NCBI GenBank assembly: GCA_014685065.1
Contig: GCA_014685065.1_4092.2
DNA length: 64,000 bases
Source: a phage
Strand: one strand, 5' to 3'
Every line of letters starts with the position of its first letter. The stretch's first letter is position 1. Below are positions 1 to 64,000 of this stretch, in pieces. The translations under genes and the position numbers were made by a program. Below the pieces are notes generated by a model. That model was not told the DNA's origin, did no database searches, and was given only the letters and a program-made list of their open reading frames with translations.

Positions 1-2
1 AA

Positions 3-764
3 CGGAATTCAAAATATTACCAACCATCAGAAATTGTGGATAACATTACTAAATCTGAGTTTGGACCGAACACACGCAAACTCATTCATGTAATGTCACG
101 TGATGGCTTTAAATGTGATTGTTGTGGTGAATCAAATGTAGTATTCACTTTACACAAGCACAGTACTAAAGAACGTTATAAATTCAGACCTTATGTACTT
201 AAAGGGAAACGCCTTGTACGCATGACGTTAGACCATAATGTACTGGACTGTCTTCAGGGCGGTAATGATAAAGAGAACATGACTGCATTGTGTGAAGATT
301 GTAACGCATTACGCCAGCATAAGTTTGCTGAGTACAGTGAGTTTAAACACTGGTATCATAACGCGGATCGTTCAATCGAGCCTGACGTTAACTACTGCTT
401 CATTGAGTACATTAAGAATGCCAAAGATACATACATTCTTAAATCAATGTCACCTATTACCGTGTTTCCTGAGAACCTATTCACTACATTAAAGAATAGT
501 TTTATTGTCGGTGATATTGATGCATTCAAGTATTTTGACAAAGGTGCAAAACATTTTGAAATTCAATGTCTTAGTACTGCACTATGTAAACTCATTAAAA
601 TTTACATAAAAGAGTATTTGGGTATTGACAATGTACGTGTACCAGAGTATACTTTTTCTATTGAATTCGATTGTGAATCAATTAAAGAGTTTGGAATTCT
701 TTTCAATAAACAAATAGAACTTGCAATTCAAAACGAAATCAAGTACTATACTACTAACATTTAA
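3..764 (+). CDS. HNH-family (homing-type) endonuclease; 5' end probably outside window
   Basis: ORF open to window start; motifs CDCCGES, LDHNVLD, GGNDKEN, CEDCNALRQ fit the HNH signature. Confidence 0.6.
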   Translation, partial: RNSKYYQPSEIVDNITKSEFGPNTRKLIHVMSRDGFKCDCCGESNVVFTLHKHSTKERYKFRPYVLKGKRLVRMTLDHNVLDCLQGGNDKENMTALCEDCNALRQHKFAEYSEFKHWYHNADRSIEPDVNYCFIEYIKNAKDTYILKSMSPITVFPENLFTTLKNSFIVGDIDAFKYFDKGAKHFEIQCLSTALCKLIKIYIKEYLGIDNVRVPEYTFSIEFDCESIKEFGILFNKQIELAIQNEIKYYTTNI

Positions 765-779
765 TCAGAGGAAATTATC

Positions 780-962
780 ATGCAAATTATCATTCTTATC
801 GTTGGCATCATGCTGGGTGTTTACGGTCACTCCTGGATGAACGAGAAGTTTCCTAATACGCGTCCTGAGTATTGCAGTACTAATGTATTCCAGAATGGTG
901 AGAAACCAAAGGAAAGTATTGGTAAAAAGCTGGACAAAGTACTTGATGTGATCAATGAATAA
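780..962 (+). CDS. small hypothetical protein, hydrophobic N-terminus
   Basis: RBS GAGG 8 nt upstream of ATG; packed head-to-tail with neighbours. Confidence 0.45.
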   Translation: MQIIILIVGIMLGVYGHSWMNEKFPNTRPEYCSTNVFQNGEKPKESIGKKLDKVLDVINE

Positions 963-1173
963 GGGCCATAAAATGTTTAAACCGAATTCCAATGTTGGAA
1001 AGAAAGTTCAATTACTTGAGGATGTATCCACTCTGAGTGGAATTTTCCCAAGAGGTCACATCATGACTATTATTGCCGAAACATCCCGTGGTTGGGACTT
1101 GGAAGATGCTGATGGTAATCGCATCCTTGAAGCTGGCTTCTATGGTCATCGTGAATATAAAATTATCGATTAA
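955..1173 (+). CDS. hypothetical protein (alternative start at 973)
   Basis: ORF overlapping upstream stop; start uncertain. Confidence 0.4.
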   Translation: MNKGHKMFKPNSNVGKKVQLLEDVSTLSGIFPRGHIMTIIAETSRGWDLEDADGNRILEAGFYGHREYKIID

Positions 1174-1270
1174 GGATATAAAATGATGTTAGAGGCTATC
1201 GTTGGTATTGTTAGTTTTAGTCATCTGTGTTGCTTGCTTTGGGTATATGATGATTTTTGGTGATTAATAC

Positions 1271-1298
1271 TTGACAGAAGATATCAGTACTGTATAAT
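1271..1298 (+). promoter_or_regulatory. sigma70-like promoter, TTGACA - 16 nt - TGTATAAT, with AGTACTG just upstream of -10
   Basis: TTGACA 1271-1276 and TATAAT 1293-1298 read directly. Confidence 0.6.
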
Positions 1299-1343
1299 GT
1301 TTATATCAAACGAAATCCACTTTAACAAATGATAGGAAATATT

Positions 1344-1622
1344 ATGTCTTTTTCTAAAGAAGAACGTGACCTTATTAAAAAAGCAATTTGGTTTTATGCT
1401 AATGAAGGGAAGTGCGATGAAGAAAAAGCACGTGAACTGTGTAATATCCTTGAGAAGAAACAAGAACTGAAAGTGTATCGTATCCGTGATTTGGATGAAG
1501 GGGATCGTATTGTCCTAGCTGAAACAAAAGAAGAAGCAGAACAAATCTTCACTGATAAAAACGAAAATCCACATTGGATGGAAGAAGTCTGTGATGTTAA
1601 AAAAGGTACTTATATCGATTGA
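1344..1622 (+). CDS. hypothetical protein
   Basis: RBS AGGAAA before ATG 1344; downstream of promoter at 1271. Confidence 0.55.
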   Translation: MSFSKEERDLIKKAIWFYANEGKCDEEKARELCNILEKKQELKVYRIRDLDEGDRIVLAETKEEAEQIFTDKNENPHWMEEVCDVKKGTYID

Positions 1623-1647
1623 CAGTACTGAATAATAGCAGTATAAT
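1619..1647 (+). promoter_or_regulatory. sigma70-like promoter, TTGACA - 17 nt - TATAAT
   Basis: TTGACA 1619-1624, TATAAT 1642-1647. Confidence 0.6.
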
Positions 1648-1661
1648 GTTTATATCAAAGG

Positions 1662-61891: not shown

Positions 61892-62103
61892 AAACTATAA
61901 CACGAACCCAATCATTCGGACTTATCTTGAAATACATGGACTTAATGGTGGATATCAGCAAAGACCTTAGTAAAACTGAAATTGAAGTTGCAATTGCAAG
62001 AGCAGAGTTCCGCATGTTGGCTGTACTGAACACAAACCATCAGGAAGATTATGTTGAAGAATGGATTCATTTTTTAATAGAAGATATAAAGAGTAAATTA
62101 TGA
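61888..62103 (+). CDS. array B paralog
   Basis: ATGA overlap; LNTNHQEDYVEEWIHFLIEDIKSKL. Confidence 0.55.
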   Translation: MKTITRTQSFGLILKYMDLMVDISKDLSKTEIEVAIARAEFRMLAVLNTNHQEDYVEEWIHFLIEDIKSKL

Positions 62104-62315
62104 TTATTATAGAAAACTCATATCAATATACTGAACGCATCGCTGCCAGACAACTTGAAATCCTCATAATATACGAAGAGACTTCTGATTTAAACTTAGC
62201 CGAGGTATTGGAAAATGATATACTATTGGGTGCATTCTTAGGAACAGACTATCAGAAGTATTATGAGGAAAAGTATTTGTCATCTCTTGAGAAATACATC
62301 AGGAGTAAACTATGA
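62100..62315 (+). CDS. array B paralog
   Basis: ATGA overlap; LGTDYQKYY...IRSKL. Confidence 0.55.
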   Translation: MIIIENSYQYTERIAARQLEILIIYEETSDLNLAEVLENDILLGAFLGTDYQKYYEEKYLSSLEKYIRSKL

Positions 62316-62524
62316 TTTTTTTAACACCAGAAGAATATAAGAAACGTTTCAAATCCGCACAGGGTGAAATCTTACTTATATACCTTTCAAATGCAGACCT
62401 TGACTTATCAAGGGTATTAGAAAAAGATTTACTTATGGGTGCATTTTTGGATACAGACTTTCAGGAGTATTATGTAGGGGAATACTTAATTGCACTCCAG
62501 AAATACATCAGGAGTAAACTATGA
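62312..62524 (+). CDS. array B paralog
   Basis: ATGA overlap; LDTDFQEYY...IRSKL. Confidence 0.55.
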   Translation: MIFLTPEEYKKRFKSAQGEILLIYLSNADLDLSRVLEKDLLMGAFLDTDFQEYYVGEYLIALQKYIRSKL

Positions 62525-62739
62525 AACATTTAAGTATCACCGAGAAGAATAAAATTGTCATTGCTGCAATAAACAAATATTTTACACTTCCTCACAAAGA
62601 AGGTTTATGTGTAAGGGAACACAGGATAAACACCACCGATATACGCATGATGGCTGTACTGGGGACGAACTTTCAGGAAGAGTATGTTGTTGCACACATA
62701 GTTGCCCTCACAAATCTAATAAGGGATAAATGTAAATGA
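62521..62739 (+). CDS. array B paralog
   Basis: ATGA overlap; LGTNFQEEY. Confidence 0.55.
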   Translation: MKHLSITEKNKIVIAAINKYFTLPHKEGLCVREHRINTTDIRMMAVLGTNFQEEYVVAHIVALTNLIRDKCK

Positions 62740-62993
62740 AATACTTAACTTCTGACGAATATTCACTTAGAATTCGTAAACTCACCCCAGAAGCAAGAGT
62801 AATCTACGATGACGATGCACTTTCATGGGTCGAGATGAAAGTTAAAGTTCATGAGCTATGGTTGCTGTACTTTGTGGGAACCCAATATCAAGAGAAATAT
62901 TGTACCGATTATCTTGAACAACTAATGGATCTTATACAGGAAAAACTAAATGATCGAATTGTGGAAAAATATGAAAACTTTATCAAGCACTGA
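62736..62993 (+). CDS. array B paralog with C-terminal read-through
   Basis: canonical ...QEKL end is followed by NDRIVEKYENFIKH because the usual ATGA stop is lost. Confidence 0.5.
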   Translation: MKYLTSDEYSLRIRKLTPEARVIYDDDALSWVEMKVKVHELWLLYFVGTQYQEKYCTDYLEQLMDLIQEKLNDRIVEKYENFIKH

Positions 62994-63222
62994 GTATCAA
63001 ACTGCCCTCTTCTCCCTTCTAAACACCCTCCGCACGAACAATAAACTTTATAATTCCCGTGAAGCTGATATCATCAATGCTGAGGTATATCTTAATAAAT
63101 TCATAGGGACAAACTATCAAGAAATGTTCACTCAACGATATATCTCTGCACTGAGAAACGCAATATGTGATAAAACCCGCCAAGCCCAAAGAGAATGGAA
63201 TAAACAATGCGACAAAGACTAA
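62950..63222 (+). CDS. array B paralog
   Basis: ATG 62950 at the position where the previous stop would normally be; IGTNYQEMF. Confidence 0.5.
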   Translation: MIELWKNMKTLSSTEYQTALFSLLNTLRTNNKLYNSREADIINAEVYLNKFIGTNYQEMFTQRYISALRNAICDKTRQAQREWNKQCDKD

Positions 63223-63458
63223 ATCACAAAATGTATTGTAAACTATTGCAGACACTGGCACAGAAACACTATGACACTGTATCTGAAATATTACCCTATG
63301 ATATCATGCGTTTAATTCATAGTGAGGCAGAGATGCTTGTACTGATGACAGGCACTGATAAAAAAGCAATTGCCAAATCAATAGATATGTTCATCGAAGC
63401 ACAATGTCAACACATTAGAACCGAGATATGGAGACGAGAGAATGATAACACTAAATGA
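63207..63458 (+). CDS. array B paralog (divergent)
   Basis: coupled ORF; MTGTDKKAI in place of GTNYQ. Confidence 0.5.
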   Translation: MRQRLNHKMYCKLLQTLAQKHYDTVSEILPYDIMRLIHSEAEMLVLMTGTDKKAIAKSIDMFIEAQCQHIRTEIWRRENDNTK

Positions 63459-63657
63459 GTTTCAGTATCATTGGAGGTTACAAACTATCAAATCAAAAGT
63501 GTATAGTATTGTGTTAAACAAATCTATTGCACAAGAGGACAAATGTGTTATAATAGCTGAAATGAAGTTGGGTGCTTTCGTAGGGACAAACTATCAAAAC
63601 ATCTACACTGACGTATTGTTAAGTGCCTTACGTAACAAGGTGGTATCCAAAATATGA
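63442..63657 (+). CDS. array B paralog
   Basis: VGTNYQNIY...VVSKI. Confidence 0.55.
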   Translation: MITLNEFQYHWRLQTIKSKVYSIVLNKSIAQEDKCVIIAEMKLGAFVGTNYQNIYTDVLLSALRNKVVSKI

Positions 63658-63872
63658 GAAATTTACAAGGCTTTGAATACATCAGACTCCTGAAAACATG
63701 CACCAGCAGAAGGAAAATCTTATCAAGCGATAAGAGCATCCAAGCTAACCTTAAGCACGCACTAGTAACTGAACTCTATGTAGGTGCACTCTTAGGCACA
63801 AATTATCAACAAATGTATGTAGATCTATGGATTGACGCTCTACAGAAAGAGGTTAAAAGTAAATGCAAATGA
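63654..63872 (+). CDS. array B paralog
   Basis: ATGA overlap; LGTNYQQMY...VKSKCK. Confidence 0.55.
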   Translation: MRNLQGFEYIRLLKTCTSRRKILSSDKSIQANLKHALVTELYVGALLGTNYQQMYVDLWIDALQKEVKSKCK

Positions 63873-64000
63873 TTAATTTAAGTAAAGACGAATTTTATGT
63901 TATACTGGCGAAAACTTATCCAGCACGTAAGGCCGTTTATGATAGTCACATTATTGAACCCTCAAAGAAGTTGATTTTAGTAAATGAGATAAAGATGCTT
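63869..64000 (+). CDS. further array B-like gene, 3'-partial at window end
   Basis: ATGA overlap; hand-translated MINLSKDEFYVILAKTYPARK... Confidence 0.4.
   Translation, partial: MINLSKDEFYVILAKTYPARKAVYDSHIIEPSKKLILVNEIKML

Follow-up and report, generated by a model that had tools for sequence, protein, structure and literature searches.

Why does a phage genome carry one six-base palindrome many times more often than its composition predicts? The question is raised by AGTACT in a 64,000-nucleotide stretch of phage DNA (NCBI GenBank assembly GCA_014685065.1, contig GCA_014685065.1_4092.2), which is referred to here, in its full length, as the window. An earlier note on this DNA had pointed to an excess of the word and suggested that it may serve either as the recognition site of a phage protein that binds or modifies DNA or as a promoter upstream element. 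The first 20 kb of the window match Escherichia phages vB_EcoM_G17 (G17) and Sharanji at 99.2% and phage 121Q at 97.7%. Judged by its sequence, the window is from an Asteriusvirus jumbo phage of the G17/Sharanji/121Q group, within the RaK2-like 350-kb jumbo myoviruses. The analysis described below found that AGTACT is strongly enriched both in genes and between them, that it is under selection, and that its enrichment follows a single phage clade.

Over-representation of AGTACT

The window contains 264 copies of AGTACT, whereas dinucleotide-preserving shuffles gave 22.4 ± 5.2 (maximum 37). This enrichment of about twelve-fold makes it the top-ranked hexamer (z ≈ 52), and the hexamers ranked next, CAGTAC (144) and GTACTG (147), are extensions of the same word. 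The pattern is the opposite of restriction-site avoidance, in which a palindrome is depleted. Markov models of orders 1, 2, and 3 predicted 22, 47, and 102 copies, respectively. The order-4 expectation of 215 is high because the sub-words of AGTACT themselves feed the model. Exact counting against a Markov background, which the earlier note had proposed as a check, therefore upholds its claim that the word lies far above base composition.

The coding sequence holds 163 of the sites (3.1 per kb), in keeping with the earlier statement that the word is frequent inside genes. The intergenic DNA holds the other 101 at roughly three times that density (8.9 per kb). When sites with ±15-bp flanks at least 70% alike were merged, 224 independent contexts were left, and the count is thus not due to the repetition of promoter cassettes. 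Of the figures given in the earlier note, the 17 copies in a stretch free of open reading frames (ORFs) were exact for positions 41042-42984, and the chance rate of about one per 3 kb was correct. The first 4 kb were indeed enriched, with 18 copies rather than about a dozen. The statement that the word usually takes the form CAGTACTG was too strong, as this octamer accounts for 55 of the 264 sites, with C before the word in about 43% and G after it in about 46%.

The sites are distributed over the window as follows:

1-64000, whole window: 264 AGTACT (4.1 per kb), 163 of them coding, in three frames, and 101 intergenic.
1-25100, + strand: small genes with 83 AGTACT (3.3 per kb), 70 of them coding; Ser-Thr is spelled AGT-ACT in 61%.
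25101-37130, - strand: array of RCC1-repeat paralogues with the lowest AGTACT density (2.4 per kb) and the lowest Ser-Thr saturation (33%).
37131-64000, + strand: early cassette region with 152 AGTACT at the highest density (5.7 per kb; coding 4.1 and intergenic 10 per kb), many in sigma70-like promoters.
41042-42984, no strand assigned: ORF-free stretch with 17 AGTACT, mostly AGTACTGA, and with promoter-like modules and iteron-like repeats.

Gene orientation, taken from our own ORF map and the G17 annotation, is + from 1 to 25.1 kb, - from 25.1 to 37.1 kb, and + from 37.1 to 64 kb. The last block is the early region, which consists of many small gene cassettes and includes the ORF-free stretch. 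Identity to G17 is about 99% up to approximately 37 kb, except for one RCC1 paralogue at 75%. From 37.5 kb on it is about 91% overall, with 85-94% over the early cassettes (37500-61400), which indicates that the early region evolves or recombines much faster than positions 1-37100.

Selection within coding sequence

The earlier note had allowed that the enrichment might disappear under a codon-aware background. The 163 coding sites were therefore set against three such nulls. Shuffling synonymous codons within each gene, which keeps the proteins and the codon usage of the gene, gave 51 ± 6 sites, shuffling codon order gave 24 ± 5, and resampling from global codon usage gave 38 ± 6. Even the most generous of these was exceeded by 18 standard deviations, and the enrichment thus outlasts a codon-aware background. 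All frames are used, with 66 sites as AGT-ACT, 62 as xxA-GTA-CTx, and 35 as xAG-TAC-Txx, and no promoter signal was found flanking the coding sites.

The effect is most visible in the spelling of dipeptides. Ser-Thr is written as AGTACT in 66 of 123 cases (54%), compared with 19 expected, and Val-Leu is written as GTACTN in 87 of 156, compared with 35 expected. Moreover, the dipeptides ST, VL, and QY are commoner than their reversals TS, LV, and YQ, from which it follows that pressure on the DNA word has shaped protein sequences. The fraction of Ser-Thr dipeptides spelled as AGTACT lies between 0.53 and 0.65 in early, middle, core, and RaK2 genes, the exception being the RCC1 array (0.33). The density of the word varies more widely. 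It is 5.7 per kb in the early region of the window, 3.3 in its first 25 kb, and 2.4 in the RCC1 array. In Sharanji it is 3.4 per kb at 300-350 kb, 2.2 at 80-130 kb, and 1.6 in the core from the capsid gene to nrdB, and the RaK2 replication genes have 2.3. Given the uniform saturation, these differences reflect the room available in each sequence rather than differing pressure, and a total of about 1000 sites per genome can be estimated.

The translation apparatus encoded by Sharanji touches on the same codons. A tRNA-Ser with the unusual anticodon ACU is annotated there (L008 15117-15208). It is cognate to AGU, the commonest serine codon in the window (382 of 1174). Sharanji also encodes a TadA-like tRNA adenosine deaminase (L010 2277-2756) and a tRNA-Thr(UGU). 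The tRNA-Ser(ACU) set may be a translational compensation for the codon skew imposed by the palindrome.

Conservation and turnover

Over 21 kb of the early region, aligned to G17 at 91% DNA identity, 120 of 139 AGTACT sites were kept (86%), compared with 68% of composition-matched hexamers (p = 9e-7) and 66-74% of all others. The excess was present in both sequence classes (coding 85.5% against 66%, intergenic 87% against 74%). Turnover was balanced, with 19 sites found only in the window and 18 only in G17. At genus level, Sharanji and RaK2 were compared over 32 orthologous core genes, which share 70% nucleotide identity. Here 17 of 38 Sharanji sites (45%) were at the same codon positions in RaK2, compared with 17.5% for other hexamers (p = 9e-5). 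The majority of sites in this pair are nonetheless lineage-specific. Excess conservation together with turnover indicates that selection acts on the presence and number of the sites while their positions change.

In a UvsW-like helicase gene, five AGTACT copies were found at the same relative positions in phages GAP32 (L004 23220-23724) and pEa_SNUABM_50 (L012 15610-16114), with a constant offset of 7610. Some sites are therefore position-conserved between genera.

Distribution among phages and the host

Seven phages from five lineages were found to be enriched, namely members of Asterius-, Alcyoneus-, Mimas-, and Eneladusvirus and phage Munch. Besides G17 and Sharanji, they include RaK2, with 114 copies per 50 kb and AGTACT as its top hexamer, GAP32 (79 against 9.1 expected), XbC2 (69 in 29 kb), Erwinia phage pEa_SNUABM_50 (47 against 6.3), and Salmonella phage Munch (31 against 5.2). 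No enrichment was found in PA5oct (3 in 33 kb), Vibrio phage 2.275.O (8 against 5.5), Agrobacterium phage Atu_ph07 (1 in 24 kb), or a T5-like phage (5 against 9.6). The AGTACT-poor relatives are of similar G+C content, and no substitute iterated palindrome was found in PA5oct or Atu_ph07. A 50-kb sample of E. coli K-12 contained 3 copies (0.06 per kb), which is about 70-fold below the window per kb.

A second feature of these genomes is the absence of GCGC. It does not occur in the window, where 64 copies are expected, nor in about 415 kb of further sequence from the clade. It is present in PA5oct (36), Vibrio phage 2.275.O (39), and Atu_ph07 (24), and in E. coli at 342 per 50 kb (6.8 per kb). 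Among the sequences compared, GCGC absence and AGTACT enrichment co-occur exactly. In the window, 31 of the 64 palindromic hexamers have no copy at all, and all of these contain at least four G/C (CAGCTG, CCATGG, CTGCAG, GGATCC, GGTACC, CGTACG, and others). Exceptions among the G/C-rich palindromes are GTGCAC (17 copies, 2.5 times expected) and ACGCGT.

Symmetry and spacing of the sites

When sites were oriented by transcription, their flanks proved to be symmetric. C is found at -1 in 45% and G at +6 in 44%, and further out T is found at -3 in 44% and A at +8 in 50%, giving the pattern YC-AGTACT-GR. The favoured outer triplets TTC, TCC, GCC, TAC, and ATC amount to a weak 12-bp palindromic consensus, TTCAGTACTGAA, with CAGTACTG as its optimum. 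Words one mismatch away from AGTACT are mildly enriched (about 1-2.7 times) and not depleted, as is expected under mutation-selection balance.

Spacing between sites is near exponential, with a mean of 232 bp and a coefficient of variation of 1.03. Pair distances pooled over five loci were flat to 400 bp, and the power at 10.5 bp was marginal and not significant after multiple testing. No helical phasing, clustering, or regular spacing was found. The sites therefore behave as independent, evenly scattered units.

Promoters, terminators, and hairpins

A minority of the sites, 49 of 264, lie in sigma70-like promoter modules, and the other 215 lie elsewhere. Within the modules the placement is fixed: 25 abut NATAAT, 15 overlap TTGCA, 6 are just upstream of TTGACA, and 5 follow TTGAC. 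The 25 sites next to the -10-like NATAAT are on the + strand, and 13 of them read exactly AGTACTGTATAAT. The earlier note had placed the word immediately upstream of many -10 elements, which is right for these 25 and does not describe the bulk of the 264. It had also described a hairpin at 24337-24359 and cassette terminator stems, and both were located. Examples of each element are:

50877-50909, + strand: promoter class (a), TTGACA-N9-AGTACT-G-TATAAT, in which the site abuts the -10.
43357-43392, + strand: promoter class (b), AGTACTTGCAA then GCGTATAAT, in which the site overlaps the -35 TTGCAA; there are 15 AGTACTTGCA copies on the + strand.
48372-48407, + strand: promoter class (c), CACAGTACTATTGACA...GATAGTACTGGCATAAT, with two sites 22 bp apart around the -35 and spacer; in this class the pair distance is 20-24 bp.
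24339-24358, + strand: intergenic hairpin CCAGTACTTAATAGTACTGG, that is, CCAGTACT-TAAT-AGTACTGG, with two AGTACT sites.
30234-30252, - strand: terminator stem GCCAGTAC..GTACTGGC, then a T run, situated 3' of an RCC1-repeat gene.
31044-31062, 32304-32322, 33524-33542, and 34734-34752, RCC1 array: the same GCCAGTAC..GTACTGGC terminator module.

The G17 annotation, which lists terminators, is cited in support of the stems in the RCC1 array. The promoter tables published for the related phage CBB are almost devoid of the word, the one instance being a AGTACTGG...CCAGTACT terminator. The word is also missing from the regulatory modules at 10-21 kb of the window. It has therefore been fitted into regulatory elements where it was tolerated, without defining them. 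As a general account, the promoter upstream element proposed in the earlier note fails: a fixed position was seen for 49 sites only, most sites are not at promoters, the promoters tabulated for CBB lack the word, and conserved genes for replication and structure in Sharanji and RaK2 are equally enriched.

The modules at 10-21 kb are abundant and of a fused terminator-promoter type, consisting of a hairpin GGGTTGACTTCGGTCAGCCC, a T run, and GCTATAAT (10586-10654, 10769-10830, 12376-12445, 13455-13490, 17952-18018, 19234-19298, and 20647-20714). The TTGAC of the terminator stem serves as the -35 of the following promoter. Most promoters of the early cassettes (43400-60100) have downstream of them a conserved leader, ACATCAAG-GGGGAGAATAGTTCTCCCC-AC. 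This short G/C hairpin lies immediately 5' of the ribosome-binding site and suggests a shared regulatory or stabilising structure of the 5' untranslated region. Within the ORF-free stretch, at about 42100-42330, some nine iteron-like copies of RGAYGGCT / CTAGAYG recur about 11-14 bp apart (for example CCAGATGGCTGG, CTAGATGGCTGT, and ATAGACGGCTAA). They are flanked by promoter-like modules with no ORF behind them. No Rfam or tRNA match was found in the window, this array included. The repeats may represent an origin, a set of protein-binding sites, or the locus of a non-coding RNA.

A proposed recognition word and its possible reader

Selection in every sequence class, symmetry, independence of the sites, conservation within the clade, and near-absence from the host are most simply accounted for by a recognition word. 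On balance, AGTACT is probably an orientation-free recognition word of a clade-specific protein, kept by selection at the DNA level in RaK2-like jumbo phages. The suggestion of the earlier note that the word is the site of a DNA-binding or modifying protein fits the purifying selection, the symmetric flanks, the uniform saturation, and the restriction to one clade. Both the existence of a protein that reads the word and the activity of that protein are inferred from these properties.

In the proposed mechanism, selection on the DNA itself would hold AGTACT at about 2-6 copies per kb, or some 1000 per genome. In coding sequence it would fix the synonymous choice (AGT-ACT for Ser-Thr, GTA-CTN for Val-Leu) and skew the dipeptides, and in non-coding sequence it would place the word in the spacers and -35 flanks of promoters and in the stems of terminators. 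The reader would then find phage DNA everywhere and act independently at each site. Candidate activities are those of a homodimeric DNA-binding protein, of a methyltransferase, of a nickase, or of a factor that regulates a nuclease in the manner of Chi. By occupying the -35/-10 region of early promoters, the reader would also be able to switch off early transcription.

With a density about 70-fold higher in the phage than in E. coli, the word may act as a tag of self. This role is attractive because of the density contrast, and because Sharanji has no phage nucleus, its DNA spreading through the filamenting cell, and RaK2-type DNA lacks hydroxymethylcytosine. A more elaborate form would be a two-part barcode that separates own from host DNA, made up of saturating AGTACT (about 3-4 per kb against 0.06) and the absence of GCGC (0 in about 480 kb against 6.8 per kb). 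A factor at AGTACT would protect phage DNA or license it for replication, late transcription, or packaging, and DNA bearing GCGC would be attacked, in a sequence-based equivalent of the hydroxymethylcytosine of T4. We put this forward tentatively and regard it as rather unlikely.

Several points weigh against a recognition word. A Pfam scan of the 134 ORFs of the window gave no obvious sequence-specific DNA binder or methyltransferase. Its only matches were RCC1 repeats, a pyrimidine-dimer glycosylase, a DksA/TraR zinc finger, a ParE-like protein, GNAT, a STAND NTPase, and a kinase. Sharanji encodes a 286-aa C5 methyltransferase (gp251) and a 173-aa Dam-type methyltransferase (gp542), of families PF00145 and PF05869. 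The latter has orthologues in other members of the clade, and neither enzyme can be assigned to AGTACT. Bisulfite data on RaK2 point to methylation at CpG, which AGTACT lacks. The sites are spaced at random, being neither phased nor regular in their coverage, which gives cooperative coating no support. The positive phages all belong to one clade, so that their distribution counts as a single evolutionary event. Finally, the uniform Ser-Thr saturation (0.53-0.65) across gene classes and two genera is also what a bias of mutation or repair acting uniformly would give.

Other candidate proteins of the clade were considered. Sharanji gp548, called a methyltransferase in the paper on this phage, has no methyltransferase signature. 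Sharanji gp353, a T5orf172 (GIY-YIG-like) protein of 108 aa, is encoded next to the major capsid gene (L003 7683-8009). Among jumbo relatives it was confined to the clade that is rich in AGTACT and free of GCGC, and beyond that clade its closest relatives occur in T5-like phages. As a reader it is a weak lead, since the T5-like genome that carries a homologue has no enrichment (5 against 9.6). It is a possible nickase candidate for the AGTACT or the GCGC bias, on purely correlative grounds. RecB/Cas4-like nucleases are also encoded in the clade and show no link to AGTACT.

Alternative explanations

The most serious rival is a mutational drive of the HIP1 type, in which biased repair, for example by an orphan methyltransferase with a Vsr-like mismatch nickase, would accumulate the word without any function of its own. 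Apart from the uniform saturation, it gains from the C5 and Dam-type methyltransferases that the phage encodes and from the fact that the commonest single-base difference between window and G17 sites is C/T at the sole C:G pair (7 of about 25); such a drive would likewise raise site conservation. Its difficulty is one of quantity. The pool of AGTACT, AGTATT, AATACT, and AATATT is expected to number about 170, whereas AGTACT alone was observed 264 times and the pool 439 times, so that a drive from T:G to C:G at a single position is insufficient. Moreover, 18 one-mismatch neighbours reachable by transition show no depletion (ratios 0.93-2.2), amino-acid dipeptides are skewed as well, and no Vsr-like gene was seen, although the full proteome was not scanned. 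This explanation is considered unlikely. Fainter still is the case for a regulatory block, according to which AGTACT would be an early-promoter element (spacer or extended -10, -35 flank, or repressor operator) and a component of terminator stems, with the coding copies as a by-product. The 49 sites at fixed places in sigma70-like modules, the operator-like pairs 20-24 bp apart around the -35 and spacer, the terminator stems built from GCCAGTAC/GTACTGGC, and the three-fold higher intergenic density all speak for it. However, 215 of the 264 sites lie outside the modules, and the block would explain less than 20% of them. The coding sites alone are 3-7 times the codon-aware expectation and have no promoter signal around them, the conserved core genes in Sharanji and RaK2 are equally saturated with almost no intergenic sites, and the CBB promoter tables lack the word but for one terminator. 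As a full account it is doubtful indeed.

An RNA-level signal would make AGUACU the target of an endoribonuclease, whether of the phage or its host, or of an RNA-binding protein, as GGAG is for RegB of T4, with early mRNAs the richest in sites. The densities agree with this (5.7 per kb in early transcripts against 1.6-2.4 in late and core ones), but recognition of RNA needs neither a perfect palindrome nor symmetric flanks, many sites are in promoter spacers that lie 5' of start sites and are not transcribed, and synonymous saturation is equal over expression classes. We hold it to be very improbable. The host nucleoid-occlusion factor SlmA offers another target, since its binding site GTGAGTACTCAC is centred on AGTACT and Sharanji-infected cells filament while phage DNA fills them; the phage DNA would activate SlmA and block division. 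SlmA, however, requires G1, T2, a purine at 3, A4, and G5 in each half-site. Exact GTRAGYRCTYAC does not occur in the window, matches with one mismatch number 2 against 1.6 expected, and GTG/GTA flanks at AGTACT number 8 against 15.6 expected, with no GAGTACTC. The essential outer bases are absent and even avoided, and a role as SlmA decoy was rejected, its probability being negligible. Finally, the order-4 Markov expectation of 215 could be taken to mean that the excess is an artefact of composition, codon usage, or repeats. That figure is built from the word's own sub-words, whereas lower orders give 22-102. Codon-aware nulls give 24-51 against 163, the 224 contexts are independent, and seven phages from five lineages are enriched while relatives of similar G+C are not. 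There is virtually no chance that an artefact accounts for the excess.

Comparison with known genomic words

HIP1 (GCGATCGC) of cyanobacteria is the nearest parallel to AGTACT as a genomic word. Both are short perfect palindromes in many-fold, genome-wide excess. They are lineage-specific, occur in all coding frames and in non-coding DNA without being carried by a mobile repeat, and are kept over time with turnover of positions. AGTACT differs in being a hexamer core without CpG or GATC, and in belonging to a clade of virulent phages rather than a cellular lineage, without being shared with the host (0.06 per kb in E. coli). It is also denser, at one per approximately 240-600 bp, and no methyltransferase could be assigned to it. 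Furthermore, the single-position repair drive proposed for HIP1 is quantitatively insufficient for it.

Chi (GCTGGTGG) is likewise an over-represented short word with independent copies that marks its bearer's own DNA, as AGTACT may do with its independent copies at 4.1 per kb in the phage and 0.06 in E. coli. In contrast, Chi lacks symmetry, is biased in its orientation, is recognised by RecBCD on single-stranded DNA, and is about 20-fold sparser, whereas AGTACT is palindromic and has no known partner nuclease. Chi is itself over-represented in the window. It was found 14 times against 0.63 expected (22 times), or about once per 4.6 kb, at 15715, 28043, 30318(-), 30576(-), 41891(-), 41903, 42750, 47534, 51706, 53169, 54434, 56818, 58226, and 60024. 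All 8 copies between 47.5 and 60 kb are on the + strand, several of them in intergenic spacers, an orientation that would be active against RecBCD coming in from the end with the higher coordinates, which is close to position 1 of the G17 record. The density is close to that of the E. coli chromosome. At 22 times expectation, Chi shows that the phage demonstrably uses such words.

GATC, the word of Dam, MutH, and SeqA, is a palindrome found evenly about once per 240 bp and recognised in double-stranded DNA by enzymes that are dimeric or symmetric, and the phage encodes an enzyme of the Dam family. GATC is, however, not strongly over-represented in E. coli and is under-represented in the window, at 0.64 of expectation. 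It is a methylation word, which AGTACT is not known to be. The only known orphan methyltransferase for AGTACT is that of mollivirus, a giant virus of eukaryotes. The SlmA site GTGAGTACTCAC shares the central hexamer exactly and differs in its outer positions, which are essential to SlmA and are absent from and avoided around AGTACT. The stoperators of cluster A mycobacteriophages are asymmetric 13-bp words oriented by transcription, with about 30 mostly intergenic copies. They resemble AGTACT as a single word for one phage protein that is spread over the genome, promoters included, and differ from it in that AGTACT is palindromic, has about 1000 copies, and lies mostly inside genes.

Significance

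AGTACT is not mentioned in the papers on RaK2, CBB, and Sharanji or in a 2026 review of jumbo phages, and a full-text literature search for it together with phage, promoter, palindrome, or jumbo gave nothing relevant. Over-represented genomic recognition words are known as a kind, and we know of no comparable word in a virulent phage.

Selection on the word is strong, as more than half of the Ser-Thr dipeptides are spelled in one way in a genome of 350 kb, which suggests that something important reads AGTACT. Words at saturating density (Chi, uptake sequences, GATC, and HIP1) have each pointed to a machine that handles DNA. In practical terms, AGTACT is a diagnostic signature of the clade for metagenomes, ScaI is expected to cut each genome into about 1000 pieces unless the sites are modified, and any synthetic recoding of these phages must respect the word. 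The identity of its reader could explain how jumbo phages without a nucleus and with unmodified DNA organise, protect, or mark their genomes.

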